From Shigella phage EP23, in the sequence record JN984867: a stretch of 44,077 nt of DNA; one strand, written 5' to 3'. Every line of letters starts with the position of its first letter. The stretch's first letter is position 1. Below, one piece after another: positions 3,546 through 39,085 of this stretch. The notes beneath the pieces are model-generated. The model was given only the letters and a program-made list of their open reading frames with translations. It was not told where the DNA came from and ran no database searches. The position numbers and the translations under genes were made by a program.

Positions 3546-4632
3546 TCAATATATGGCGGATCGAATGATTCGCCGTCACATATTCACCCAGCGCCTGAGC
3601 AATGACCAGGCGCGGAGGGTGCTGGCTATGTGGGAGAAGTTCCGTCCCTCGTTACTTGGTAAGCTGACCGAGTTACTTGATGGCAAAAAATCCATGAATA
3701 ACAAGGCACTATCCACGCTGTTAACGCAACTCGACAAGACAGTTAAAGCAGAATTGCGCACCGAGTTTAAGGCGTTGGCTGAAAGCCTTCAGGAGTTTGC
3801 CGACACGGAGGCCGATTATCTCGCCGACACATTAACGGCAGCGATCCAGCCGGTGGTCGCTGTACCTGCGATCGAGGTGGTTGGCGTAGTGACCGGTGCG
3901 CAGATCGCAGCGACTGCGATGAAAAACCCGTTCCAGGGAAATACCATGATGCAATGGCCCGATTCATTGTCTGAGTGGACCAGGACGCAGATCGGGAATC
4001 AGGTGCGCGCTGGATTCATCCAGGGTAAGCCGACTATGGAAATTATAGCGGACGTGAGGCGCGCGCTCGGCGGTCGTAGTGCGCAAGCTATCTCAAGCGT
4101 TGTTAAGTCCGCAGTCAACCACTATGCGGCGACAGCCCGCGAATTAATGGTAAAAGCTAATGACGATATTCTCGAAGGTCGCCAATGGTTATCTACATTG
4201 GACACGCATACTTCTCCCATGTGCCAGCTACGCGATCGCCTGTTTTATCCGGTTGATGTTACTCCCGACACCAAAGGAAAGCGCGGCGGGAAAATGGTGG
4301 CTGGGTCACAATATGGCGCTGGTCCGGGAAAGTTGCATTATTGTTGCCGGTCGACGGAGACGTGGAAGGTTAAAGGCATGGAAGATTGGCCCAGTGGTAA
4401 GCGTCCGGCACTGAAGGCTGACGCGGGTCGATTGCTGAGTGAGCAGGTCGACGCGCAGACTGATTTCTTCTCATGGGTGCAGCGCCAGCCGCGCCATATC
4501 CTGGAAGAATTATACGGAGTGCAACGCGCCGACCAGATTATGCGCGGCGTGAAAGTGCCGAAGATGTTCACCGATTCAGGCGAACTAATGACTATTGCGC
4601 AGCTTAAAAACCGGGGGTTATGGCGTGATTAA
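3529..4632 (+). CDS. head morphogenesis / minor head protein (Mu gpF / SPP1 gp7-like)
   Basis: 367 aa ORF overlapping portal 3' end; conserved order terminase-portal-F-like. Confidence 0.7.
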   Translation: MAKTINQYMADRMIRRHIFTQRLSNDQARRVLAMWEKFRPSLLGKLTELLDGKKSMNNKALSTLLTQLDKTVKAELRTEFKALAESLQEFADTEADYLADTLTAAIQPVVAVPAIEVVGVVTGAQIAATAMKNPFQGNTMMQWPDSLSEWTRTQIGNQVRAGFIQGKPTMEIIADVRRALGGRSAQAISSVVKSAVNHYAATARELMVKANDDILEGRQWLSTLDTHTSPMCQLRDRLFYPVDVTPDTKGKRGGKMVAGSQYGAGPGKLHYCCRSTETWKVKGMEDWPSGKRPALKADAGRLLSEQVDAQTDFFSWVQRQPRHILEELYGVQRADQIMRGVKVPKMFTDSGELMTIAQLKNRGLWRD

Positions 4633-4954
4633 ATATGCAGCGATTGGACTGGGTGTCGGTCTGGCGGTAGGATTCTGGCTAGGTGACTCCTATCGCGCTG
4701 GCGTAGTGGCGGAGGCGGCGCAAGAAGCGCAAGCCCAAGCCCAACGGCAGCAAACTAAAGTTGTTGAGCGCTCCGTGCAGGCCGAACAGGCCCGCGACGT
4801 AGAATACCGGACTATCACGAAAGAGGTTGTTAAATATGTTACGCGCCCTAACCGCCCTGATTGTAGTTTTGATGCTGAGCGCGTGCGGATCAAGCAACGT
4901 GCCGTTGATGCCGCTAACGGAGTCGGCGCTGCGACCGCCGTGCAAGTTCGATAG
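4625..4954 (+). CDS. Rz: i-spanin (Rz-like): N-terminal TM helix plus periplasmic coiled coil
   Basis: In-frame GTG at 4625 preceded by GGGGG RBS; IKYAAIGLGVGLAVGFWLG TM segment then Q/A/E-rich helix; overlaps the Rz1-like ORF out of frame. Confidence 0.6.
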   Translation: MIKYAAIGLGVGLAVGFWLGDSYRAGVVAEAAQEAQAQAQRQQTKVVERSVQAEQARDVEYRTITKEVVKYVTRPNRPDCSFDAERVRIKQRAVDAANGVGAATAVQVR

Positions 4955-5066
4955 CCCGTCCGCAGACCCCGACGAGGATTTGATGATTGACGTGAAAAAT
5001 ATGGAATGCGGGGCGAAGCTGAGGGCGCAGGTCCTGGAGTTGCAGCAAATAATTAAGGGGCCGTAA
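4836..5066 (+). CDS. Rz1: o-spanin (Rz1-like outer-membrane lipoprotein)
   Basis: ATG at 4836 after AAGAGG RBS; signal peptide MLRALTALIVVLMLSAC with lipobox L-S-A-C, Pro-rich mature part; begins inside the Rz-like ORF in another frame. Confidence 0.65.
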   Translation: MLRALTALIVVLMLSACGSSNVPLMPLTESALRPPCKFDSPSADPDEDLMIDVKNMECGAKLRAQVLELQQIIKGP

Positions 5067-5079: not shown

Positions 5080-5844
5080 TCAGCGCGGAATACCGCAAAT
5101 CTCGTTGAGAGTTTTCACATCCAGCGCCACCGCCGTGGATTTTGGCTTGTCCGGGTATGGTATGAATTGCTCAACTTCAGGCCATGCCTTAATCAGCTTC
5201 TTGTCAGTATTGTGCAGGTCCAGCACACCGGTAACGGTGAGTTTGAACGCATCATACTTCGCGCGTAACTCGCGACGGGCTTTGTCGTTGCGGTCCAGGC
5301 GTTTACAGAAATCATGATCTGCCGGGTAGTCTACGCGACCGCGTGGAAGATATATCGGCAGCGCTTTCCCGTCCTCGTCCACTTCGCACACTGACGCGAG
5401 CATAACCGTCTCGAACCCCGGAACGATATCGCCGAGATCAGGCGCGAGCATATTCATATATTTCTCTTCCCAGTACCCGCGATGTACGCGGTATTGGCGA
5501 CCGTCACCGCTCAAGGACAAGGTGCGAACATTTCCGCCTGCGTTGATTTCGAAAGTGGCGTCGTAAACGCTGCCGATACCCTTCGGACGGTCGGTGTTAT
5601 AACTATACGTCGCCTTGTTGGTGTATACGCTGACGCCGTACATCTGCGACTGGTCATCGAGGATTAACAGGATATGCTCGCGTAGCGCGGCGAATGTGCG
5701 AATGCCGTCCGGCATACAGTCCAGCGTGATTGCGTACGCCAGATCGCGGGAGTCCATCATGATTGATTTGGCTTCGGTTGCGATTTCGTGGTCGCGCAGG
5801 ATGTTAGCCAGGATCTGATTTTTAATGTCTTTCGTCAGTCTCAT
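5080..5844 (-). CDS. hypothetical protein (reverse-strand accessory gene inside structural module)
   Basis: 254 aa ORF, GAGGA RBS before ATG at 5844; no motif recognised. Confidence 0.5.
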   Translation of the reverse strand: MRLTKDIKNQILANILRDHEIATEAKSIMMDSRDLAYAITLDCMPDGIRTFAALREHILLILDDQSQMYGVSVYTNKATYSYNTDRPKGIGSVYDATFEINAGGNVRTLSLSGDGRQYRVHRGYWEEKYMNMLAPDLGDIVPGFETVMLASVCEVDEDGKALPIYLPRGRVDYPADHDFCKRLDRNDKARRELRAKYDAFKLTVTGVLDLHNTDKKLIKAWPEVEQFIPYPDKPKSTAVALDVKTLNEICGIPR

Positions 5845-5925
5845 TTTTGTGTCCTCGTTGTTGGGGCTTTCGCCCCGTTTGGTTTAGTTGAATTTGATGC
5901 CGCCACCAACAGGCCGCTTTGTTCG

Positions 5926-6438
5926 CTACAAACGCATCGGCATGATAACAAGGAAGGCCCCACCTTTGAACGACACACGTGTCGCCTTGTCGACCCCCCG
6001 GAATTCCAGTTTTAAGCTATCAAACTTACGGTCGAACAATTTAGCAATTTTGAAGGCGTCGGATAGGTATGCCCCATTAAACCCGATAGCCTCCACTTTA
6101 GCGCTGGCGAAAGACGAAACTCTACGCCAGTCTGGGAATCGTCCGTCTATGTTCTCTACGGGCAGGGTCCCTATTAATACGTCTTTACTATCAAAGAACG
6201 CTGCGGAGGTGTCGTCAATGTTGCAGTATTCGAATTTAGCAGGTAAGCGGCCTTTAATTGATACTATTTTACTTTCACCTTCGGGAACAACCGCGGACCC
6301 TAAGAACAAACGATGTCCGTCGGAGGCCACAATGAAGCCTTTCTCGTCGAAAAATACACCATTCAGATAGTATCGCACGTCATTAGTTGCGGCGCACATC
6401 ATAGCGGCTTTAAGATCGGCATAGTTAACTTTAATCAT
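5926..6438 (-). CDS. beta sliding clamp (DnaN)-like protein, half-size (about 170 aa)
   Basis: Motifs VRYYLNGVFF, IVASDGHRLF, DGRFPDWRRV, IGFNGAYLSDAF and C-terminal VIMPMRL parallel DnaN domain II-III landmarks (from memory of E. coli DnaN); start taken as second ATG after GAGGA RBS (track ORF extends to 6492). Confidence 0.6.
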   Translation of the reverse strand: MIKVNYADLKAAMMCAATNDVRYYLNGVFFDEKGFIVASDGHRLFLGSAVVPEGESKIVSIKGRLPAKFEYCNIDDTSAAFFDSKDVLIGTLPVENIDGRFPDWRRVSSFASAKVEAIGFNGAYLSDAFKIAKLFDRKFDSLKLEFRGVDKATRVSFKGGAFLVIMPMRL

Positions 6439-6462
6439 TATCATTTCCTCGTTGTTGGTGTG

Positions 6463-6532
6463 CAACCAATATAATGCAACCAACATCTGCAATGCAAGCG
6501 AATTTTGCGATTATTTTTATCGCTGATAATAT
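6463..6532. promoter_or_regulatory. divergent promoter region: leftward TTGCAT-N18-TATATT (clamp-like gene) and rightward TTGCGA-N16-TAATAT (scaffold gene), with two TGCAACCAA motifs
   Basis: Hexamers read directly; shares an extended block (TGCAAG-C/T-GAATTTTGC) with the 24.9 kb promoter. Confidence 0.5.
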
Positions 6533-6586
6533 TAAGGCGTGAAGTCAAGCGGGTGGCCCGCTTTGCCACAATCCCAGGGGGATAGC

Positions 6587-7291
6587 ATGAAACTTACTAA
6601 AGCAGAATATGACGCGTTGCCAGAAGGCATGAAGGCTTTATTTGTTGCCGATGGCGATGGGTATAAATCCACGTTCATGACCGCCGAAGAAGTACAGGCG
6701 GAGATCAAGGGTCTGAAAGACAACAACGCGAAGCTGGTTAGCGAGAAGAAAGCAGAAGCCGAACGTCGCGCCGAAGCCGAGCGCCTTGCGAAAGAGAAAG
6801 AGGAAGCCGCCGCGCGCAAAAATGGTGACCTCGAAGCAATCGACAAATCCTGGAAAGATAAGTTCGCAAAACATGAAGCGGACACATCGGGGAAAATCGA
6901 AGCCTACCGCAAGCAGATCCACGACCTGACCATCGGCAGCGCCGCCAAAGATCTGGCGTCGAAGCTGTTCGGTAAGAACGCCGGAATCATGCAACGTCAC
7001 GTTATGGACCGCCTGACGCTGGAAGACGGCGAAGACGGCAGCTTGAAAGTGCGGGTCTTGCAGGATGGCAAACCGTCCGCGCTGACTATGGAAGAGCTTG
7101 AAAAAGAGTTCCGTAATAACGCCGATTTTGCATCCGTCCTGGCTGGCACGCCAGCAGGCGGCGCTCCTAGCAAACCGACGCAGGTTGTCGAAGATGTGAA
7201 GTCAAAAATCACTATGGGCCACAGCTTCGGTATCACTGACTTAACGAAACAGGCAGGGGATATCATCGCTAAAATGGGCGACGACGAGTAA
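6587..7291 (+). CDS. scaffolding-like protein (coiled-coil, charged)
   Basis: ATG at 6587 after GGGGGA RBS; K/E/A-rich helical sequence immediately upstream of major capsid gene. Confidence 0.5.
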   Translation: MKLTKAEYDALPEGMKALFVADGDGYKSTFMTAEEVQAEIKGLKDNNAKLVSEKKAEAERRAEAERLAKEKEEAAARKNGDLEAIDKSWKDKFAKHEADTSGKIEAYRKQIHDLTIGSAAKDLASKLFGKNAGIMQRHVMDRLTLEDGEDGSLKVRVLQDGKPSALTMEELEKEFRNNADFASVLAGTPAGGAPSKPTQVVEDVKSKITMGHSFGITDLTKQAGDIIAKMGDDE

Positions 7292-17253: not shown

Positions 17254-17861
17254 CCACGTTTAAATTGTACGGCGTCTTAGGGCGTCGTTTTGGTAAAGTG
17301 CACAAGCTGGACTGCTTCACACCAGGCGAAGGCATCACCGGCCTGTGCGTTAAGTTACCTGGCTTACAGGACTTTCTAATGTCGGCCCACCTGGAAAACA
17401 TTATGTTCAAGGTGCGCAAGGGCAATCACACAATGACCGGATACGACGAGTTGGGCGAGTTCCACGGCGACCGCGTAGTGACCATCGCGCCGGTTATGAC
17501 TGGCGCAAAAAGAGGACTGGGTCAGTTGCTGGCAGGCGTAGCAATCGTGGTGGCGTCATTCTACACCGGCGGGCTTGCTACTGCCGCTTTTGGTGCTTCA
17601 GCCGCGACCGCTGCCGCTATTGGCACAGCAACTTTCTCGTTCGGGATGTCAATGGCGCTGGGCGGCGTTATGCAATTGCTGTCGCCACAGCCGAAAGGAT
17701 TGCAGACACGGCAGGACGTGGACAACAAAGCGTCGTATGCGTTCGGCGGACCGGTAAACACGACAGCGCAAGGTACCGCACTTGGTGTATTATGGGGCGA
17801 GCGTGAGATCGGCGGCGCTATTATTTCAGCCGGAATTGTAACCGAGGATTTTAACGAATGA
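17244..17861 (+). CDS. tail assembly protein, lambda gpI-like
   Basis: 205 aa with Gly/Ala-rich hydrophobic C-terminal half; overlaps K-like stop and J-like start. Confidence 0.6.
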   Translation: MAMTTFKLYGVLGRRFGKVHKLDCFTPGEGITGLCVKLPGLQDFLMSAHLENIMFKVRKGNHTMTGYDELGEFHGDRVVTIAPVMTGAKRGLGQLLAGVAIVVASFYTGGLATAAFGASAATAAAIGTATFSFGMSMALGGVMQLLSPQPKGLQTRQDVDNKASYAFGGPVNTTAQGTALGVLWGEREIGGAIISAGIVTEDFNE

Positions 17862-20800
17862 CGATTATCTACGACGTCACGGGCCATAAAGGCGGCGGCG
17901 CAAAACCGCACACCCCACAGGAGACGCCTGACAGCCTGCATTCACTGGCTAAAGCCCGCATCTTGCTAGCACTGGGTGAAGGTGAGTTTGAAGGCATCCC
18001 GACCGACAACGAATTACGGCAGCGCGTTTATTTGGACGGCACGCCGATCCAGAACGCCGACCGATCCGAAAACTTCCCCGGCGCGCGCGTGGAGTTCCGC
18101 CCAGGCACACAGCACCAGGACGTTATTCACGGATTTTCCGCGGTGGAAAGCGAGCAGACAGTGGGTGTAAAACTGGAATACGGCACGCCGTGGGTGCGCC
18201 AGATTAACGACACCAGTTTGGACGCCGTGCGCATTCGAGTCGGTATACCGGCCCTGTACACTAACGAAGATAATGGCGACCTGGTGGGCGGGCGCATCGA
18301 CTATAAAATCGTTGTGTATACGGATAACGCCGATCCGCGCGAGTTCCGCTTCGCTGCCGTTGGAAAAACAATGTCGCTGTACGAGCGCGACCACCGCATC
18401 GAGCTACCGTCTAACGTGAATACCGGCTGGCGCGTGGAGGTGCACCGCTTAACGGCTGATTCCACCTCTGCGAAAGTGGTCAATGATATCCGGGTGCAAT
18501 CCATTACGGAGATTATCGACGCCCGCCTGCGATACCCGCTAACCGCGCTGTTGTTCGTGGAGTTCGACGCTAAGGCTTTCCAGAATATCCCGCGCGTGTC
18601 AATCAAGTGCAAAGGTCGCAAGGTGTTGGTCCCGAACAACTACGACCCGATTAATCACACCTATTCGGGGGACTGGGATGGCACGTTTAAACGCGCATGG
18701 ACGGATAACCCTGCGTGGCACTGGTACGATATTTGTATTACTGAGCGCTTTGGCCTCGGTCGTCGTATCAAACCGCAAATGCTAAACCGATACGCGCTTT
18801 ACCAGGTTGCGCAGCGCTGCGATCAGCTGGTCAGCGACGGCAACGGCGGGCAGGAAATCCGATTTAAGAATGATATGTACATCCAGTCGCAGACCGACGC
18901 CTGGACCGTGCTTAAGGATTTAGCCGCTATCTTTGCCGGTATGACCTGGTGGGGCAATCAGATGTTAAATATCGTCAGTGACCAGCCGGTAGCCGCGGTA
19001 TCGCACACTATCACAAACGCCTCGGTGATTGATGGTCGATTCGACTACGCATCCGGTAGCCAGAAAACCCGGTATTCCACGTTCGCGGTAGCATACGGCA
19101 ACCCGAAGAACCACTACGAAGACGCCATCGCAACGGGCCAGCGCGTCGAACTGGTGCGCCGCCATAAGATTAACCGCCTCGATATTACGGCGATCGGCTG
19201 TACGCGTGAGTCCGAAGCGCAACGCCGCGGGCACTGGGCGCTAATCTCCAACCAGCTTGACCAGCAAGTTAGCTTTAAGGTTGGCATGGAAGGGCTGTTT
19301 TTTATCCCGGGAAGCGTAGTTGCGATCGCGGATACTAATATTTCCGGCGGCTTCGAGACACGCGGCGGACGCCTGTTGTCAGATCCAGGGACGCGTACTG
19401 TGCTGAACACGGACAGCGAAATCACGTTCCGCCCTGGCGATAAATTCTTGGTGCGCACCGATAGCGGGAATGTGGAGACTCGCGAGATTGCCAGCGTCAA
19501 CGGCAACAAGGTTACGCTGAAAACAGCACTGAACGCTGACCCGATTCCCGATCAACCGTTTTGCGTTGATGGCGACGATATCCAGTTGCAGAAGTTCCGC
19601 ATCACCGACCTGGAATATGACGACGCTACCAGCACTTTCTCGGTGCGCGGGATTGAATACAACGACAGCAAATACGATGCCGTTGATAATGGCGCTCGCC
19701 TTGATCCGGGCATCTTCACGCAAGTTCCTGACGGCGTAATGAAGGGGCCGGAGTCGGTAATCATCACCCCGTCGCAGATCTCATCGCAAGGCCAGCTAAT
19801 CACCAACGTGGATATTGTTTTCCCGCCGGTGAAAGATGCCGTTGTGTACGAAATCCAGTGGCGGCGCACCAGCTTGCAGAATATGGAAATCCAGTGGGGT
19901 AACGACTGGGTGAACCTTCCACGCACGGCATCGAACGGCGCGCACATCCCTAACGTGTTCTCCGGCAACTACCAGGCACGCGTCCGCGCGATCGGTATGG
20001 GTGAGATTTCATCCCCGTGGGTGGAGTCCGCCATCACGCCGGTGGAAGGTCGCCTCGGCGGGCTTAACGCGCCGATCATCACCAACGCGATTTCTGGCCT
20101 CCACCAGATTTTGTGGAAGTGGAACCATAATAACGCCGCGACGGATATCTCATACACCGAGCTTGAAGTGCGCAAGACCGGTGAGACGGAATGGAAATTT
20201 CTTACCAACGTCCCATATCCAGGGGCGGAGTATGCACAAACGTCTCTGGAGTTCGGTATCTATCAGCAGTTGCGCGCCCGCGTAGCGGATAAAATCGGCA
20301 ACCTGTCGGACTGGTCGGCCCCGTTTGAAGGGCAGGTAAGTAACAAAGTTGACGAGTACATGAAGGGGCTTGACGATGAGTTCTTGACTTCTGAGGATGG
20401 TAAACGCTTCCAGGAAGCGATCGACACCATGCCGCAAGGCATTTACGAGGCCATGCTCACCGACGCGCAGCAAATGTTCAACGCCCGCGCTGAGTACCAG
20501 GGGATTTATGCGGAAATCAAGGTGGCGTATAACGTGGCAGCAGACGCCCACCAGGCCGTCGCGCAACTGGAGACGTTGATCGGCACGCGCCTTGACGAAG
20601 CTGAAGCGGCGATTCACACGTTGCAGACGGCGCAGAGTACGCAAGAGCAGGCCTTCGCCCGGTATCAGCAGACTGTTGCCGCTAAGTTCTCGGAGCAGGA
20701 AGCCGCTATCCAGCAGGTACAGACGGCAACGGCGGACGTAGCTGGCGCACTGGCGGAGTATAAGACCCAGGTCGCAGCACAGTTTGGGCAGCAGTCTGCC

Positions 20801-21676
20801 GCTATTGAGCAGAAGATGACGTCTTCGTTTAACCACTCCGGTGGTAGCGCCACGTACAGCCTTAAGGCGGGCGTGACGTATAACGGGACTTACTACGATG
20901 CCGGTATGCAGCTTTCCGTCGTGACGTCGGGCAACGCGGTTAAATCACGCATCGCATTCAAGGCGGACCAGTTCTACATCATGCACCCGTCCAACGGCAC
21001 GCTGTCATCGGCGTTTATTGTGGATGGGGGACAGGTGTATATAGACACAGCCCGCATCAAGAACGCGTCCATAAACTTCGCGCAGATCACGGACACGCTG
21101 CGGTCAGATAACTTCGTAGCGGGATCACGCGGGTGGAACCTGCCTAAATCTGGTAATGCGGAGCTTAACAATGTGACAGTCCGCGGCACCGTTTATGCGA
21201 ATGATGGTGAGTTCCGGGGCACGGTTTATGCAAGGGATGGGGTATTTACCGGAACGGTCGAAGCCACCAGTTTTGTCGGTGACGTTGCAAATATGTGTGT
21301 TATCGGTGCGAAAGCAATACCCAACACAGCCAGGAATGGATCAAGGTCGTGGTCGGTGACTTTCAACGACTCATCCAATTCAACAAAACTCAAAGACTTT
21401 GTATTGCTGTTAAGCTACTCACTGGTCGGGTACACCGCAAGCCAGTCAAGCCGCATTGCTATTACCGCCAATATTGGCGGGAAAGTAGTCTCAAGGACTA
21501 TTGAACGAGCGGCAAGCGGAAACGCAATCCATACAACGATTCCTTTAGCTGCGAAAGGTGTAACGGCGGGAAGTGTGACAATTACTGTGAAAGAAGAGTA
21601 TACAAACGTCTACGGCAGCACATTGCACCCGTCTGTAATTTTAATGACTCGTGGGACAGGTAGCTGGTCGCAATAA
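17858..21676 (+). CDS. central tail fiber / host specificity protein, lambda gpJ-like
   Basis: 1272 aa, largest virion ORF, follows I-like gene; C-terminal ~130 aa distinct and Ser/Thr-rich. Confidence 0.85.
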   Translation: MTIIYDVTGHKGGGAKPHTPQETPDSLHSLAKARILLALGEGEFEGIPTDNELRQRVYLDGTPIQNADRSENFPGARVEFRPGTQHQDVIHGFSAVESEQTVGVKLEYGTPWVRQINDTSLDAVRIRVGIPALYTNEDNGDLVGGRIDYKIVVYTDNADPREFRFAAVGKTMSLYERDHRIELPSNVNTGWRVEVHRLTADSTSAKVVNDIRVQSITEIIDARLRYPLTALLFVEFDAKAFQNIPRVSIKCKGRKVLVPNNYDPINHTYSGDWDGTFKRAWTDNPAWHWYDICITERFGLGRRIKPQMLNRYALYQVAQRCDQLVSDGNGGQEIRFKNDMYIQSQTDAWTVLKDLAAIFAGMTWWGNQMLNIVSDQPVAAVSHTITNASVIDGRFDYASGSQKTRYSTFAVAYGNPKNHYEDAIATGQRVELVRRHKINRLDITAIGCTRESEAQRRGHWALISNQLDQQVSFKVGMEGLFFIPGSVVAIADTNISGGFETRGGRLLSDPGTRTVLNTDSEITFRPGDKFLVRTDSGNVETREIASVNGNKVTLKTALNADPIPDQPFCVDGDDIQLQKFRITDLEYDDATSTFSVRGIEYNDSKYDAVDNGARLDPGIFTQVPDGVMKGPESVIITPSQISSQGQLITNVDIVFPPVKDAVVYEIQWRRTSLQNMEIQWGNDWVNLPRTASNGAHIPNVFSGNYQARVRAIGMGEISSPWVESAITPVEGRLGGLNAPIITNAISGLHQILWKWNHNNAATDISYTELEVRKTGETEWKFLTNVPYPGAEYAQTSLEFGIYQQLRARVADKIGNLSDWSAPFEGQVSNKVDEYMKGLDDEFLTSEDGKRFQEAIDTMPQGIYEAMLTDAQQMFNARAEYQGIYAEIKVAYNVAADAHQAVAQLETLIGTRLDEAEAAIHTLQTAQSTQEQAFARYQQTVAAKFSEQEAAIQQVQTATADVAGALAEYKTQVAAQFGQQSAAIEQKMTSSFNHSGGSATYSLKAGVTYNGTYYDAGMQLSVVTSGNAVKSRIAFKADQFYIMHPSNGTLSSAFIVDGGQVYIDTARIKNASINFAQITDTLRSDNFVAGSRGWNLPKSGNAELNNVTVRGTVYANDGEFRGTVYARDGVFTGTVEATSFVGDVANMCVIGAKAIPNTARNGSRSWSVTFNDSSNSTKLKDFVLLLSYSLVGYTASQSSRIAITANIGGKVVSRTIERAASGNAIHTTIPLAAKGVTAGSVTITVKEEYTNVYGSTLHPSVILMTRGTGSWSQ

Positions 21677-21682
21677 GCAAAT

Positions 21683-21709
21683 AGCCCCTCGCTTGAGGGG
21701 CTATCTTTT
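21683..21709. terminator. bidirectional rho-independent terminator between J-like gene and convergent lipoprotein gene
   Basis: AGCCCCTC-gctt-GAGGGGCT hairpin flanked by A/T runs on both sides. Confidence 0.7.
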
Positions 21710-21950
21710 AATAATCAATGACGCAGTTTGATGGGGAACCAATCCTGCGGTGTTCGTGGCTAATCTCCTGGCACCACTGACCGGTATATGGTAGCTTTTC
21801 GGTATCGTAAACCAAAGACCCGTCCTCATGTCGCTCAATAGGCTGAGGTATTACACCGGAATTTGGAACGCCTGTGCTTAAGCCGCTGCCACATGCCGTC
21901 ATCAGAAGGCACGCCGCGGGTATTATCAGATTTTTGATTAAAGTTTTCAT
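21708..21950 (-). CDS. small lipoprotein, candidate receptor-blocking superinfection-exclusion protein (Llp/Cor-like by position)
   Basis: ATG 21950 after AGGAG RBS; signal peptide MKTLIKNLIIPAACLLMTAC with lipobox L-M-T-A-C; 80 aa; sits between J-like and fiber genes on opposite strand. Confidence 0.55.
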   Translation of the reverse strand: MKTLIKNLIIPAACLLMTACGSGLSTGVPNSGVIPQPIERHEDGSLVYDTEKLPYTGQWCQEISHEHRRIGSPSNCVIDY

Positions 21951-22031
21951 GTTATCATCTCCTGTATTGGGTTGAGTTTTAGTATTACACCGCTCAACCA
22001 AGAATGCAACCAATTTTATGAGGATTTAGCT

Positions 22032-23660
22032 ATGGCAGCGGGTACGCTCTCCGTAACGAACAATAGCAAGGCTGTAGTAGGGGTTGGCACAACGTTTACC
22101 GAGTACAAGGCTGGTGACTTCTTATCGCTGGTGGTTGGGCAAGTGCCTTACACCGTGGCGATCGCGTCCATCGAAAGCGCAACCGCGCTCACACTGGTGT
22201 TGCCGTTCGACGGCCCAACGGCGACGGGTCTGGCCTGGGACGGCATCAAACGTGACACCATGTCATTGGCGACGATGGGCGTAACCGTCCAGGCGCAAAA
22301 AGCATTGCGATTGATGATCGCAGATGAGAACAACTGGCGCGCAATCTTCGGAGAAGAAGAGGAAATAACAGTGACGTTACCTAACGGGCAGGTTATGCAG
22401 GGCATGTCATGGGGCTATCTGTCGCAGCTAATGAAGCAGATCGACCCCGTAGAAATGCGCAACCTGCAACAACAGGCCGAGACGGCAAAAAACCAGGCTG
22501 TTACTGCGAAGGGCCAGGCAGAATCAGCGCGCGATGCGGCTAATACAGCAAAAACTGGCGCGGAGAACGCCCGCAACCAGGCCAACACCGCACGTGATCA
22601 GGCCAACACCGCCAAAACAGGCGCAGAATCAGCGCGCGATGCGGCTAATACAGCAAAAACTGGTGCGGAGAACGCCCGCAGCCAGGCGCAAGGGTATCGC
22701 GACGAAGCAGAGCAGTTTAAAAACCAAATCAACCCATCACAGTTCATGCTTAAGTCGCAAAACCTTAGCGACGTAGCGAACAAAGATACGGCGCGGGACA
22801 ATCTGTCACTAGGCCGCACTCAGCGTGCGCAATTTGAGGGGGTTGACCTGTCTAAAAGCGACTGGCCCGGCTTAAGGTTTATTACAACCAGCATGTCACC
22901 AACAGAGGTCGGCTATCGCGTTGTCTTTGAGCATGATTCGAGTGATAACCGCATGGCGCTCTACTGGCGAAATGGCTCAGATGCCAATGGGCAGGCCGCC
23001 GTCCACTTCACCGCGCCTGCCAGCGGGCAGACGCGATTTATTGCATACAAGGAAGAAGTAAACCTTCCAGAAATTACAGGCTGGGGCGTAGCGGCTCCCT
23101 CGCAAGGACCGAGGGCGACGAACGCCACAAACCTTGCGCCGGGGCTTTATTGGGGTACCGTCGCTGACGTCGGCAATCCAATTTCAGGAACACTCGGCAT
23201 GTCGATGCTTCAAACATCAGGATCATCCGCCAATTACCGCTGCCAGTTGGTGTTTCAGGATAGCGCGGGCGGGGCGATGTATCTCCGTTCCAGTAATAGT
23301 AGCGTTTTTGGTAACTACAAGCAGGTAACTACCTCTGCGGTGTCGGATGAGCGCCTGAAAACTGTCCGGGGAAATCTTAATCTAGAAGGTGCGCTGGATA
23401 ACATAAACCGAATGGATTTTAAAATTTTCTCGTTCCTGAGTGATGGGCCGGAACGTAGCTACCGACGCGGCGTTATCTCGCAGCAGATCCGCCAGATTGA
23501 TAAGCAGTACACGAAAGAGATCGGCGGGTACTATCATCTTGATCAGACACCAATGCTACTGGACGCCCTAGCGGCAATTAAAGCATTGCGGGCGCGTGAC
23601 GAGGCTAATAAAGCAGAGATTGCAGAGTTAAAAGCGGCGATTGCAGAATTGAAAAAATAA
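22032..23660 (+). CDS. L-shaped-type tail fiber with internal repeats and C-terminal intramolecular chaperone (peptidase S74-like) domain
   Basis: ATG 22032 after GAGGA; repeated ANTAKTGAENAR units; C-terminus SDERLKTVRGNLNLEG...NRMDFKIFSF resembles S74 autoproteolytic chaperone region. Confidence 0.75.
   Translation: MAAGTLSVTNNSKAVVGVGTTFTEYKAGDFLSLVVGQVPYTVAIASIESATALTLVLPFDGPTATGLAWDGIKRDTMSLATMGVTVQAQKALRLMIADENNWRAIFGEEEEITVTLPNGQVMQGMSWGYLSQLMKQIDPVEMRNLQQQAETAKNQAVTAKGQAESARDAANTAKTGAENARNQANTARDQANTAKTGAESARDAANTAKTGAENARSQAQGYRDEAEQFKNQINPSQFMLKSQNLSDVANKDTARDNLSLGRTQRAQFEGVDLSKSDWPGLRFITTSMSPTEVGYRVVFEHDSSDNRMALYWRNGSDANGQAAVHFTAPASGQTRFIAYKEEVNLPEITGWGVAAPSQGPRATNATNLAPGLYWGTVADVGNPISGTLGMSMLQTSGSSANYRCQLVFQDSAGGAMYLRSSNSSVFGNYKQVTTSAVSDERLKTVRGNLNLEGALDNINRMDFKIFSFLSDGPERSYRRGVISQQIRQIDKQYTKEIGGYYHLDQTPMLLDALAAIKALRARDEANKAEIAELKAAIAELKK
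22519..22686 (+). repeat. two near-identical ~64-bp direct repeats (period 104 bp) inside the fiber gene
   Basis: gcagaatcagcgcgcgatgcggctaatacagcaaaaactgg(c/t)gcggagaacgcccgca(a/g)ccaggc at 22519 and 22623. Confidence 0.85.
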
Positions 23661-36081: not shown

Positions 36082-36274
36082 ATATCTCCGATTGGTTAAG
36101 TTTAGGTGTCGACCATTAACTTCGTCGGTGGCCTTAACATAGTGCCAGGTTACGCGTTCTCCCGTTCGGGTAGTGGACCTGGTTATATAATCACGGTTGG
36201 GAATCCTGACACTTCGATCCGGCCCCTGCGTTGCCCCTCTCCAGTTTGCGTCCTGCATCCTGTCGACGAGGTGA

Positions 36275-36303
36275 ATATTAGATTGGTTGCAGAAGGGAGT
36301 CAA
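36275..36303 (-). promoter_or_regulatory. leftward promoter TTGACT-N17-TAATAT with TGCAACCAA in the spacer
   Basis: Read on minus strand: TTGACTcccttctgcaaccaatcTAATAT; ~190-nt leader before ATG 36081. Confidence 0.55.
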
Positions 36304-36313
36304 CAACTAATTT

Positions 36314-36350
36314 AAAAAAAAAAAGCGCCGAAGCAAAATGCGACGGCGCT
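36314..36350 (-). terminator. strong rho-independent terminator on minus strand in divergent intergenic region
   Basis: AGCGCCG...CGGCGCT hairpin followed (minus strand) by ~11 U. Confidence 0.65.
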
Positions 36351-36372
36351 AACCAATAAGAGACAATGAGAC
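36314..36372 (-). ncRNA. candidate ~55-nt small RNA (promoter TTGAAA-N16-TAATAA to terminator)
   Basis: Minus-strand promoter-like hexamers at ~36380-36407 immediately upstream of the terminator; no coding potential. Confidence 0.25.
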
Positions 36373-36420
36373 GGGAGTATTATTACACGCGTGCGCGCCC
36401 GTTTCAATATCCCAAAGGAG

Positions 36421-36449
36421 TTGACACCCTGCGGTTTTAGGTGTAGTTT
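36421..36449 (+). promoter_or_regulatory. rightward promoter TTGACA-N17-TAGTTT
   Basis: Consensus -35 read directly upstream of gene at 36481. Confidence 0.55.
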
Positions 36450-36480
36450 CATTGGTCATTAACCAACCGGAGACAGAATA

Positions 36481-36810
36481 ATGAATATCAACGACGCAAT
36501 CGAAATGCTAACGAAGACTGTCTGCAGTGAGACTAGCCGGTCCTGGGCGTATACCGATGCCGTGGGGGCGGTGCTATTTGAAATCGAACGTCTGCGACTT
36601 ACCGAAAAAGAATTGCGCGCGAAGCTGGAATTACTCAACGGTACGGCAGCCAGCAAGCTGCAAAAGCACAATGAAGAAATGGAAGAATACAAAAAACAGG
36701 TTATCCGTTTGCGCGCCGAGGGAAAATCCTGGGCGATGATCGCTGAGTTGACAGGAATTAATCAGAGCACCGTGCGCTCCTGGGTACGCAATAACAAAAC
36801 TTCGAAGTAA
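36481..36810 (+). CDS. HTH DNA-binding protein (putative transcriptional regulator)
   Basis: C-terminal KSWAMIAELTGINQSTVRSWVRN helix-turn-helix; GGAGA RBS; first rightward gene. Confidence 0.5.
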   Translation: MNINDAIEMLTKTVCSETSRSWAYTDAVGAVLFEIERLRLTEKELRAKLELLNGTAASKLQKHNEEMEEYKKQVIRLRAEGKSWAMIAELTGINQSTVRSWVRNNKTSK

Positions 36811-36820
36811 GGCAACGGCA

Positions 36821-39085
36821 ATGAGCTTAATTAAATTCGCTGTAACACGACCCGCTAAAAAAGGCGAAAAAGCCAGGGCGGAAAACTTCCAGATGACCAC
36901 CGATGAATTTTTCGAATTTATCAATGACGCGAAAGAAATATCATCGGTGCATATCAACAAGACCGAGGATAAAGCGGAGTATGCGCGCCGCAAGCGTAAG
37001 GCCGATGGCATCGTAGCGTATACCAGTGACGGCTTACGCCGCAAGACCAGCGCGGTGGACCGCTCGATCCTGTTCTTTGATATTGACCGCACCGACACTC
37101 GCACCTTACGCCGCTGCCGTAAGGCGTTCATTGACGCGGGTCTGGAACACGTATTCCACACAACCACCGGCGACCGCCACCCGCTTAAAGGCGGCACGCG
37201 TTGCGCTCGCTTCCTGGTACTCACTGATAAGCCGGTCCCGGCTGAAGACCTGGGCCGTGTCCAGTATGCGCTATTACATCAACTTGGTCTGTCGGATGTG
37301 GACTTCGACGATTGCACGAAAGACACAAACCGCCTGATGTACCTGCCGCACCAGCAATCGGTTATTAAGTGCCACTACGGCAAACGTGCCCGCGTCCGTC
37401 GTCTGCTTCGCCTGGCGGATACGCTTGGCGTGGAGAAGGAAGAAGTACGCCGCGAGCTTACCCAGGGCGACGACGCAGTGGCGGACGGGATTCTGGACTG
37501 GTGCTTCCAGGCAGGATTTGAGGAGTTATCTTCCGGTCGCGGTTATGAAGTGCCATGCCCGAACGAACATCTGCACAGCGGCGAAGGGTCGACGGCTATC
37601 ATGGTCAAGGATGGCGAGATCCGTTTCAAGTGTATGCACACAGGCAACGAGTGTTGCTCTGAGCTAAATAGACACCAGCACCTGGCGCTACGTCTTATCG
37701 GGATACCGGACCACCTGAACGTCGAGCCGCACAACATGTCGCGTAAGCAAATCGCCGCCATCCTGCCAGGTCTGGACGACGAGGAAGTCGAATCCTTATA
37801 TGATCATATTGTTGATGCAGTTGGCGACGGCGAAGAATACGGCGTGTGCACCGATGCGGATCTGGATAACGAGCCGGTCGCACTATTCAGTAAGCACGAC
37901 CCGATCATCGAAGGCCTGGTCAACTTCAAATCGACCTGGTACATGGCTGGCGAGTCGAACATCGGTAAATCGTTCTACGTGCTGGGCCAAATGGGCGCGG
38001 TTGCCGCGGGGATTCCGTTCGGCGGTGCGAAGGTCGTCCAGTCTCATTGCTTCTATTTCGACGCGGAAGGTGGCGAAGCCTCCAACCAGCGTAAGGAAGC
38101 ATTGCAGATCAAATATGAGCACGACCTGGACAAGCTGCACATTATTGACCTGCAATCACGCGGCTGGGATATCACCAGCAAATCAGGCTTGCGTGAAGTT
38201 ATCAGCTTCATCAACCGCACCGCTAACGGCGAGCCGGTTGGCCTGGTGGCGTTCGACTCACTCAACCAGACTGTTGCGCTGCGGTCCGCCGATGCAAAAC
38301 CGTTCGACGAGAACAACGCCAGCGATATGGGCGAAGTGGTCAAAGCGCTGAAGGCCATTGCGGAAAATACAGGCGGCAGTGCGGGCGTCATCCACCACCC
38401 GGCGAAAGGTGCAAACGGCCGCAGATCTCCCCGTGGGTCCGGCGCGCTGCATGGTGCTGTCGATTCTGCGTTCTTCCTGGAGCAACCGGACGACAACCAG
38501 CCAGGTCAATTGAACCTGTATCACGAAAAGGCACGTAACGGCATCAAGCAAGCGCCGCGCGGCTTCGTCCTGCTCAAGTGCAAGGTTAAGGTGGATCTCC
38601 GCAAGTCCGAAGCGTTCGAAGCCCACCAGTCCACCAGCACCGGGCCAGACTTCGGCGATGTGGTTGCCGGTTGGGACGTCAAACCAATTGCGTCCACCCC
38701 GCGCGACGAGACTCTATACCTCGTACCGGTAGCCCTGGCACCGTTCGCGATAGAACAGGCGAAGGCGGCGGGCAAAGCCGCAGTTAAGGAAGAGAACACC
38801 GCCGGTCCGCGCAACGAAAAAGAGAAAGTGCTTTATGCGGCCCTGGAAAAACTGATGGCAGATAACCCTGACCATACTGGATTCAGTAAATCGGCAATTG
38901 TACGCCAGGCGGGACTCGCTAAGGGTGGCACTTCGACGAAGGCAATCGACGATATGGTCGAGCGCGGCGTGATTGGTTTCTATACAGACCCGCACACCGG
39001 GGCCATATATGGGTCGTCGAATTTAGTCATCAAATCGGAGATCCCCATAACGCTTTCGGCGACCGATGACGACCTGAAAGACTAA
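36821..39085 (+). CDS. DNA primase-helicase (prim-pol-like N-terminus plus RecA/DnaB-like ATPase)
   Basis: SILFFDIDRTD acidic motif, Cys/His cluster CPNEHLHSGEG...CMHTGNECC, Walker A GESNIGKSFYVLGQ; 754 aa. Confidence 0.75.
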   Translation: MSLIKFAVTRPAKKGEKARAENFQMTTDEFFEFINDAKEISSVHINKTEDKAEYARRKRKADGIVAYTSDGLRRKTSAVDRSILFFDIDRTDTRTLRRCRKAFIDAGLEHVFHTTTGDRHPLKGGTRCARFLVLTDKPVPAEDLGRVQYALLHQLGLSDVDFDDCTKDTNRLMYLPHQQSVIKCHYGKRARVRRLLRLADTLGVEKEEVRRELTQGDDAVADGILDWCFQAGFEELSSGRGYEVPCPNEHLHSGEGSTAIMVKDGEIRFKCMHTGNECCSELNRHQHLALRLIGIPDHLNVEPHNMSRKQIAAILPGLDDEEVESLYDHIVDAVGDGEEYGVCTDADLDNEPVALFSKHDPIIEGLVNFKSTWYMAGESNIGKSFYVLGQMGAVAAGIPFGGAKVVQSHCFYFDAEGGEASNQRKEALQIKYEHDLDKLHIIDLQSRGWDITSKSGLREVISFINRTANGEPVGLVAFDSLNQTVALRSADAKPFDENNASDMGEVVKALKAIAENTGGSAGVIHHPAKGANGRRSPRGSGALHGAVDSAFFLEQPDDNQPGQLNLYHEKARNGIKQAPRGFVLLKCKVKVDLRKSEAFEAHQSTSTGPDFGDVVAGWDVKPIASTPRDETLYLVPVALAPFAIEQAKAAGKAAVKEENTAGPRNEKEKVLYAALEKLMADNPDHTGFSKSAIVRQAGLAKGGTSTKAIDDMVERGVIGFYTDPHTGAIYGSSNLVIKSEIPITLSATDDDLKD

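Follow-up and report, generated by a model that had tools for sequence, protein, structure and literature searches.

Within a window of 44,077 nucleotides (nt) from Shigella phage EP23 (sequence record JN984867), which is the whole stretch of DNA that was analyzed, we examined the 3' end of the gene for a J-like tail tip protein together with a small lipoprotein gene which converges on it. We consider it probable that the two form a "fused"-type module, in which the C-terminal receptor-binding domain (RBD) of J binds the maltoporin LamB, the lipoprotein then disables LamB, and both are swapped as a unit between phage lineages. Modules of this kind have been described before, and experiments exist for a homologue of the lipoprotein, Lpp010 of phage mEp010. 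The window represents a nearly complete Dhillonvirus genome. Its first 25 kb show ~93% nt identity to Escherichia phage HH3, and many other Dhillonviruses are 91-93% identical over the same region.

Receptor-binding end of the J-like protein

The J-like protein has the architecture of a GpJ-type protein, with the GpJ domain set (Pfam domains FNIII-A_GpJ, Phage-tail_3 and, at amino acids (aa) 982-1118, Phage_Tail_Tip), a neck, a "[VI]GD[VI]" junction and a predicted C-terminal beta-sandwich RBD. In a phmmer alignment, aa ~997-1155 match residues 860-1006 of lambda J, continuing across the repeat neck as far as the "...KIVGDI" junction, after which the LamB-binding domain follows in lambda J. 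Position 21290 of the window is codon 1145 and thus the first residue past the conserved junction motif FVGDVA. Because an earlier reading of this DNA, made from the sequence only, had let the receptor-binding end begin at this position, its start corresponds to the true start of the RBD. An AlphaFold2 (AF2) model of aa 1100-1272 reached a predicted local distance difference test score (pLDDT) of 79 overall, with an all-beta RBD and block means of 72-96. The top PDB matches of the RBD model in Foldseek were the lambda central tail fibre in its closed (8xck, E 6.5e-7) and its LamB-bound form (8xcj, E 1e-6), both with a probability of 1.00 and a template modeling (TM) score of ~0.45. The assumption that the last ~130 codons of J encode a separate receptor-binding domain is therefore borne out by the homology to lambda J through the junction and by a fold whose nearest match is lambda gpJ. 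Near-identity to a solved Dhillonvirus-type chain, 23gd_D ("J-like tail tip protein gp24", 1148 aa), extends to ~residue 1083 of J in the window and takes in residues 982-1083; the alignment stops at residue 1120, and the chain itself ends at 1148.

The RBD is 71% identical to that of Bas21 GottfriedDienst (E 2e-64) and 68-72% identical to those of Bas23 and Bas24. LamB was determined as the terminal receptor of Bas21, Bas22, Bas23 and Bas24 (Maffei et al., 2021, S5 table, PMC8594841), and knockout of lamB makes the phages mEp010, 013, 044 and 554 fail (Negrete-Mendez et al., 2025, PMC11893012). These eight phages carry a lipoprotein of the same family as the one in the window (phrog_12984), and all carriers with receptor data need LamB. 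In the BASEL follow-up paper some Dhillonviruses are already coloured as LamB-type, and a recent preprint ties distal GpJ domains to LamB specificity and notes co-localised accessory proteins (10.64898/2026.04.02.716166). Judged by these homologies, the RBD of the window most likely binds LamB.

The sequence-only reading had also described the end of J as Ser/Thr-rich and slightly AT-richer than the remaining gene. Both impressions agree with the computed values. GC content and codon usage were calculated, and the region 21290-21960 has a GC content of 0.472, compared with 0.565 for J upstream of 21137 and 0.544 for the whole window; only 1.6% of windows of the same size are as low. Ser and Thr together account for 25.6% of the final 129 residues vs. 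14.7% of the whole protein, a share reached by only 0.3% of the 129-residue windows along J. At third codon positions, GC content falls from 0.69 (aa 1-1093) to 0.47-0.48 (aa 1094-1272), whereas at first and second positions the two parts show 0.50 and 0.49. Since the drop is confined mainly to third codon positions, it is not a by-product of the amino-acid content and indicates a foreign origin. Seuratvirus genomes have ~44.5% GC, and a low-GC donor of this kind would account for the break. We infer that the cassette was transferred from lower-GC phages such as the Queuovirinae (~44.5% GC). Two further troughs, equal to or deeper than that of the J tail, were seen in 671-nt windows at ~5750-6670 (0.447) and ~36250-36970 (0.462), and these may be additional acquired segments.

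The convergent lipoprotein and its family

The gene downstream of J had been read as an 80-aa convergent gene with a clean signal peptide and lipobox, and this description was confirmed. The protein starts with MKTLIKNLIIPAACLLMTAC, followed by GSG..., and a ribosome-binding site (AGGAGA, 21958-21963) lies 7 nt upstream of its start. Cys20 of the lipobox LMTAC is invariant in 17/17 homologues, as are the motifs PNSGV, TEKLP.TGQW and GSPSNC, and Cys60 is present in 16 of the 17; all of them occur in the protein of the window, where the second motif can be extended to TEKLP.TGQWC.E. As Cys60 and Cys76 are both conserved, the lipoprotein probably carries a Cys60-Cys76 disulfide. Ratios of nonsynonymous to synonymous substitutions (dN/dS) of 0.09-0.17 in comparison to HH3 and PNS1 demonstrate purifying selection. 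The sorting of lipoproteins by the Lol system depends on the residue at position +2, following the lipid-modified Cys, which governs whether a lipoprotein goes to the inner or the outer membrane, with Asp being the signal for retention in the inner membrane. This residue is Gly in the window and G, A, S or T in the homologues, never Asp, which predicts sorting to the outer membrane. Public records label the gene only "hypothetical protein" or "lipoprotein". In the PNS1 records (MK138527 / NC_073063) it is unannotated, and the annotation in Maverick (LR990702) uses an internal start (195 nt), by which part of the signal peptide would be lost.

The sole PHROG match of the protein is phrog_12984, "lipoprotein" (E 1.2e-39, profile positions 4-77 of 77), and it is 53% identical to Lpp010 (mEp010_116, E 7e-31). 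Its sequence places it in the phrog_12984 / mEpimmI type-C Lpp family. Its core is 71-81% identical to the lipoproteins of LamB-dependent phages. Expressed from a plasmid, Lpp010 (mEp010 gp116) excluded mEp010, mEp044, mEp554 and, unexpectedly, lambda (PMC11893012). According to the same study, no lipoprotein of a lambdoid phage had been reported to exclude lambda. The exclusion phenotype which had been predicted for the gene in the window is thus displayed by a member of its family, and its status as a candidate exclusion gene is strengthened.

The family is small. A word-indexed search of 5.8 billion proteins found 16 clusters at 90% identity, a HMMER profile scan of 1.84 billion representatives returned 3 with E < 1e-10, and a scan of GTDB genome contigs returned none. 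In these searches no remote relatives and no tie to Cor, Llp or Rtp45 appeared. No match to the lipoprotein was obtained in Pfam (E <= 0.1) or NCBIfam. Membership in the Cor family was rejected, as phrog_1119 gave no match at E <= 0.1, while the control JLBYU37_19 scores E 3e-26; BLASTP of the lipoprotein against JLBYU37_19 yielded E 0.21, and the mature parts alone gave nothing. The Rtp45 family (PF24052) was rejected likewise, with no Pfam match at E <= 0.1 and no match to 9rps_D at E <= 10; bas18_0026, the positive control, scored 1.8e-21 against PF24052 and 2e-8 against 9rps_D. For T5 Llp, neither a PDB sequence match at E <= 10 nor a Foldseek match was obtained, the structural model being poor and the presence of an Llp chain in the PDB copy unconfirmed. 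Of the parallels to T5 Llp and to Cor of phi80/N15 drawn in the sequence-only reading, the functional logic therefore holds, no sequence relationship was found, and the likely receptor is LamB and not FhuA.

The short gap between the convergent stop codons is occupied by a GC-rich hairpin with folding energies of -18.4 kcal/mol on one strand and -20.7 kcal/mol on the other (z about -5), preceded by an A-rich and followed by a T-rich tract. A terminator consensus scan flagged the + strand alone; in the minus-sense tail (UUUGCUUAUU) the U-tract is interrupted. Thus, of the shared bidirectional terminator proposed earlier, the strong hairpin between the stops is present, and its action in both directions is plausible from the sequence. 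A hairpin was found at the same place in every related locus with a distinct gap that was examined, with stem sequences differing between lineages.

Another lipoprotein gene of the window, located at 4836-5066 (+) and encoding MLRALTALIVVLMLSAC..., specifies a Rz1-like o-spanin (phrog_5672, E 4e-26). It overlaps an open reading frame (ORF) at 4595-4954, which is probably the i-spanin partner.

Exchange of the cassette and the Dhillonvirus slot

By tblastn, the lipoprotein was found in 42 phage records. These include Seuratvirus and Nonagvirus (CAjan, Seurat, 9g and Bas21-24), the temperate mEpimmI phages mEp010, 013, 044 and 554, MagusPhagus, Cronobacter CSP1, Salmonella STP-SP5 and Enterobacter AS5, a Drexlerviridae phage. 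IMG/VR contributed 31 more loci. In 43/43 loci with both genes, drawn from Dhillonvirus, Seuratvirus, Nonagvirus, mEpimmI and Drexlerviridae, the lipoprotein gene faces J convergently, and 33-45 bp separate it from the J stop. In comparison to the Seuratvirus copies, the RBD of the window is 68-72% and the lipoprotein core 77-79% identical, against only 33-34% for the upstream J body over the 120 residues compared; across the four other carrier lineages, the J bodies are 29-39% identical over this length. A single high-scoring segment pair of 649 nt (71%) with Bas21 covers RBD, hairpin and lipoprotein.

The borders of the cassette are visible in the comparison with other Dhillonviruses. On the left side, blastn homology stops at 21131 against JLBYU37, which depends on FhuA, and at 21188 against Oekolampad, which depends on LptD. 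In a megablast search with 20700-22100, most Dhillonvirus matches end at query positions 432-489, and the whole region is kept in just 6/153 matching phage records, namely HH3, Maverick (two), CS16 and PNS1 (two); all other Dhillonviruses match only up to ~21131-21188. On the right side, homology to Oekolampad and JLBYU37 restarts at 21937, inside the lipoprotein gene. An alignment of four phages shows that the upstream region and the first 15 nt of this gene are near-identical and that divergence begins after that. The lipoprotein genes of the window, Oekolampad and JLBYU37 therefore have in common the 81-nt upstream region, the ribosome-binding site and the codons for MKTLI, and the window departs after codon 5.

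Between the same boundaries, Oekolampad carries a separate 321-aa receptor-binding protein (RBP) and bas18_0026, a lipoprotein of the Rtp45 family (PF24052, phrog_4281), while JLBYU37 carries two small genes and a lipoprotein of the Cor family (phrog_1119). As the modules of these siblings differ between fixed boundaries, Dhillonviruses keep a fixed slot which receives unrelated receptor/exclusion modules. One conserved expression slot appears to host three unrelated families of exclusion lipoproteins, and the crossover of the window appears to lie inside the signal peptide. The suggestion that J tail and lipoprotein are an exchangeable unit is supported, since the unit is replaced by LptD- or FhuA-type modules in siblings and is present in four other lineages. 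In bas18_0026 (L049:5100-5321) and JLBYU37_19 (L050:5112-5330), the signal peptide MKTLIMICAVLLSGC is identical and divergence sets in just past the lipobox Cys, which places a recombination junction at the processing site.

At least three main RBD classes occur in the loci: the class of the window (...ILMTRGTGSWS), the ...SPT[IV]IVS[HR]GSGSF class of Bas22, 9g, mEp010, 013, 044 and 554, and the MagusPhagus class. Additional variants occur in single loci, for example in L030 and AS5. The class of the window and the ...GSGSF class have <26% identity, and the junction motif GTVEA..F[VI]GD[VI]A is kept in all classes. Mantel correlations of the lipoprotein sequence were r 0.68 with the backbone and r 0.38 with the RBD class. 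Among lipoproteins on one backbone, identity amounts to 96% for a shared RBD class and to 93% for different classes. The co-variation of J C-terminus and lipoprotein which the sequence-only reading had proposed to look for thus exists as co-occurrence, which is without exception, whereas the sequences co-vary only weakly at a fine scale. Despite this constant association, the RBD is recombined independently of the lipoprotein. LamB is used by both of the classes that are well sampled, and lambda, too, is excluded by Lpp010. Such a pattern would be expected if the target of the lipoprotein were the receptor and not the RBD.

Some loci from IMG/VR deviate from the common pattern. The lipoprotein copies of L029 and L031 are without the lipobox Cys and have an ordinary signal peptide (..NAFA/NTNE), in L027 and L028 the last conserved Cys is replaced by Arg, and the copy of L032 is frameshifted. 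L030 (IMGVR_UViG_3300045988_050407, 44 kb) is Dhillonvirus-like with a J neck 81% identical to that of the window; its RBD, ending in ...TVTIARGTGSFA, represents a further class, and its lipoprotein is divergent (60% core identity) and lacks the PNSG motif. Proteins of another type were found at the convergent position in two phages whose J proteins match the J tail of the window at ~34-36% identity. Salmonella Tlsvirus vB_GS166 (L052, 2053-2322, -) has an unannotated 89-aa ORF, which is no lipoprotein, and Nonagvirus PD328 (L053, 2037-2315, -) a 92-aa Gly-rich protein (phrog_2243), each with a signal peptide of the signal peptidase I type. These small secreted proteins may be exclusion factors for other receptors.

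Table 1. Location of the module and its surroundings in the window (strand "." = no strand assigned)
Feature	Position	Strand	Basis or remarks
J-like central tail fibre / tail tip	17858..21676	+	1272 aa; ORF list, Pfam, phrog_31 "central tail fiber J"
Left recombination boundary (J aa ~1092-1111)	21131..21188	+	blastn ends, megablast ends, GC falling from here
Neck of short repeats (VRGTVYANDGEFRGTVYARDGVFTGTVEATSFVGDVA)	21189..21289	+	leads into RBD; aligns with lambda J
C-terminal RBD, predicted LamB-specific	21290..21673 (aa 1145-1272)	+	homology to LamB-dependent phages, model, composition
GC-rich hairpin, 10-12 bp, probable bidirectional intrinsic terminator	21681..21704	.	fills 31-nt gap between convergent stop codons
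Lipoprotein, 80 aa, predicted LamB-directed superinfection-exclusion protein	21708..21950	-	phrog_12984; Lpp010 homology
Lipoprotein stop codon	21708-21710	-	
Mature 61-aa lipoprotein, 6.7 kDa, isoelectric point (pI) 5.05	21711-21893	-	computed mass and pI
Lipid-modified Cys20 (predicted)	21891-21893	-	lipobox LMTAC
Signal peptide, aa 1-19	21894-21950	-	lipoprotein gene
Right boundary and conserved slot	21937..22031	-	first 5 codons (MKTLI), ribosome-binding site AGGAGA and 81-nt intergenic region common to siblings
Lateral tail fibre	22032..23660	+	divergent from lipoprotein gene; phrog_1980; Peptidase_S74 chaperone domain aa 438-490

The lateral tail fibre gene next to the slot is swapped as well and forms a second module; its breakpoints lie near 22463-22479 and near 23625. 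Its nt homology to HH3, Oekolampad and JLBYU37 is limited to the first ~150 codons and picks up again at 23625 for HH3 and Oekolampad; the Peptidase_S74 domain lies within the divergent middle.

Proposed mechanism, alternatives and related systems

In the reading which we favor, the last ~128 residues of J of this virulent Dhillonvirus would form a lambda-J-like beta-sandwich RBD that binds LamB. The lipoprotein (6.7 kDa) would leave the cytoplasm, receive its lipid at Cys20 and reach the periplasmic face of the outer membrane, where it would make LamB unusable for phages needing it. Shut-off of LamB would prevent superinfection, and progeny would not be wasted on infected cells or debris. J tail, shared terminator and lipoprotein body (~21131/21188 to 21936) would move together between lineages by recombination and land in a slot supplying the upstream region of the lipoprotein gene, its ribosome-binding site and its first five codons. 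From the homologues we infer that LamB is the receptor of the phage and that the lipoprotein is located in the outer membrane. Its periplasmic orientation, a direct binding to LamB and a block of adsorption would be analogous to Llp on FhuA and Rtp45 on LptD.

LamB is a trimeric porin which has neither a plug nor a lateral gate. The effect of Llp on FhuA is allosteric, and that of Rtp45 is a displacement of LptD loops (PMC12685063); in the absence of plug and lateral gate, the structural solution for LamB must differ from both. We consider it conceivable, though less likely than not, that the family inactivates plug-less LamB from the periplasm by a mechanism unlike the allostery of Llp on FhuA or the wedging of Rtp45 on LptD, and that the Dhillonvirus slot takes three families. 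The lipoprotein could possibly enter or distort the LamB barrel and thereby move its extracellular loops. If this is true, maltodextrin uptake could also stop, and an allele-specific escape such as that of mEp013 would be explained.

Several points weigh against a LamB-directed module. The mechanisms of Llp on FhuA and Rtp45 on LptD do not obviously transfer to a porin without a plug. Structural modelling of the lipoprotein with AF2 gave a poor result (pLDDT 63), and a Foldseek search of the PDB yielded no fold match for it, just noise at E > 5, making a comparison with Llp or Rtp45 at the level of the fold impossible. For the lipoprotein gene, consensus scans gave no convincing promoter; a weak site resembling one (TTGGTT-18-TGTAAT, 22013-21984) is a candidate only. 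In the exclusion experiments, mEp013 escaped Lpp010 in spite of its dependence on LamB, and the assay consisted of plaque spotting only, which does not separate a block of adsorption from later blocks (PMC11893012). These last two points, together with a lipoprotein sequence that tracks the backbone more than the RBD class, would also suit a lipoprotein blocking a step after adsorption (opening of the tail tip, passage of DNA through the periplasm or entry at the inner membrane) and not the binding of the RBD to LamB. We regard such a late block as unlikely. The presence of the family tracks the receptor type and not the backbone, with the FhuA- and LptD-dependent siblings carrying lipoproteins of the Cor and Rtp45 type. 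Lambda, which Lpp010 excludes, is an unrelated phage sharing only LamB. Moreover, the lack of Asp at +2 in any homologue predicts sorting to the outer membrane, and receptor binding is seen for Llp and Rtp45, the analogues whose complexes have been solved (PMC12685063).

The RBD of the window differs from its nearest LamB-proven relative, that of Bas21, at 29% of residues, and the supplement of the 2026 receptor-screen preprint holds no receptor data for HH3, PNS1, Maverick and CS16. The domain might thus have diverged from those of the LamB-proven Seuratviruses to recognise another outer-membrane protein. This seems improbable to us, as far more divergent RBDs (20-26% identical) still use LamB in Bas22, mEp010, 013, 044 and 554; the high core identity of the lipoprotein to copies of LamB-dependent phages and the Dhillonviruses of LamB type in the BASEL follow-up point in the same direction. 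We attach hardly any probability to a lipoprotein unrelated to receptor use, i.e., an o-spanin for lysis, a Bor-like host-fitness gene or a factor for tail assembly. Rz1 and Bor are indeed small phage lipoproteins, and the annotation of the gene in public records is uninformative enough to allow such a role. However, a Rz1-like spanin is already encoded at 4836-5066, and phrog_12984 as the sole PHROG match led us to reject an o-spanin. Bor was rejected as well, since the Pfam search (E <= 0.1) returned neither Bor nor another family. An exported lipoprotein would be unable to chaperone tail assembly in the cytoplasm, the homologue Lpp010 has a demonstrated exclusion phenotype (PMC11893012), and the gene is strictly linked to the 3' end of J in five lineages.

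Among the known systems, the type-C Lpp of the mEpimmI phages (Lpp010) is homologous, with 53% identity overall, 71% from the PNSG motif to the end, and the same invariant motifs and cysteines (PMC11893012). Its locus resembles that of the window, with a convergent gene 36-37 bp from the J stop, a hairpin and a J with a fused C-terminal RBD. It belongs, however, to a temperate 54-kb siphovirus instead of a virulent 44-kb Dhillonvirus, the RBD is of the other class (20% identical), and the mature lipoprotein begins with AVDKEAALHNL, compared with GSGLSTGV in the window. The LamB-type "bona fide RBP locus" of the Queuovirinae (Bas21, Bas23 WildeMaa, Bas24 SeppeHuegi; CAjan, Seurat) has the same RBD class, lipoprotein and layout and is collinear with the window at the nt level (71% over 649 nt); LamB dependence is experimental there (PMC8594841). 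These phages differ in the J body (33-34% identical over 120 residues) and in their genomes, which comprise 56-60 kb, are 7-deazaguanine-modified and have ~44.5% GC. Their records annotate the lipoprotein only as hypothetical.

Rtp45 and its relative bas18_0026 of Oekolampad (Dunbar et al., 2025, PMC12685063) resemble the lipoprotein of the window in the small size (~6 kDa), an internal disulfide and the dedication to the terminal receptor of the own phage, the latter two being predicted features in the window. In this sibling Dhillonvirus the same slot is used, including upstream region and first five codons. The sequence family is unrelated, though, and the receptor is LptD. In addition, the RBP of Oekolampad is not a fused J domain but a separate 321-aa protein, whose gene is co-directional with the lipoprotein gene. 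Cor (phi80, N15, T1-like phages and JLBYU37_19; phrog_1119) and T5 Llp are likewise outer-membrane lipoproteins which are encoded beside a receptor-binding gene and inactivate the receptor, and Cor occupies the same Dhillonvirus slot in JLBYU37. Neither shows a detectable sequence relationship to the lipoprotein of the window, and their target FhuA is a plugged TonB-dependent transporter, whereas LamB is unplugged. The C-terminal domain of lambda gpJ (8xcj, 8xck, 8iyk) has in common with the window the Phage_Tail_Tip domain, a repeat neck, the "[VI]GD[VI]" junction and a beta-sandwich RBD of ~130 aa, and the receptor is probably the same (LamB). The RBD sequences cannot be aligned past the junction, and the similarity of the folds is limited to a TM score of ~0.45.

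What the present analysis adds is the explicit link of the lipoprotein of virulent Dhillonviruses and Queuovirinae to the tested Lpp010 of mEpimmI phages. Further additions are the mapping of the breakpoints at a resolution of some tens of bases, the right one falling inside the signal peptide, the single slot for three unrelated families of exclusion lipoproteins, and the uncoupling of the lipoprotein from the RBD class. Two literatures are thereby joined, one on the LamB-type GpJ locus (BASEL) and one on Lpp010 of mEpimmI, which apparently do not cite each other on this point. The module would allow the prediction of the terminal receptor (LamB) and of the cross-exclusion group from sequence alone, which could be used in the design of phage cocktails and for the retargeting of phages by a swap of ~800 bp (21131-21936).

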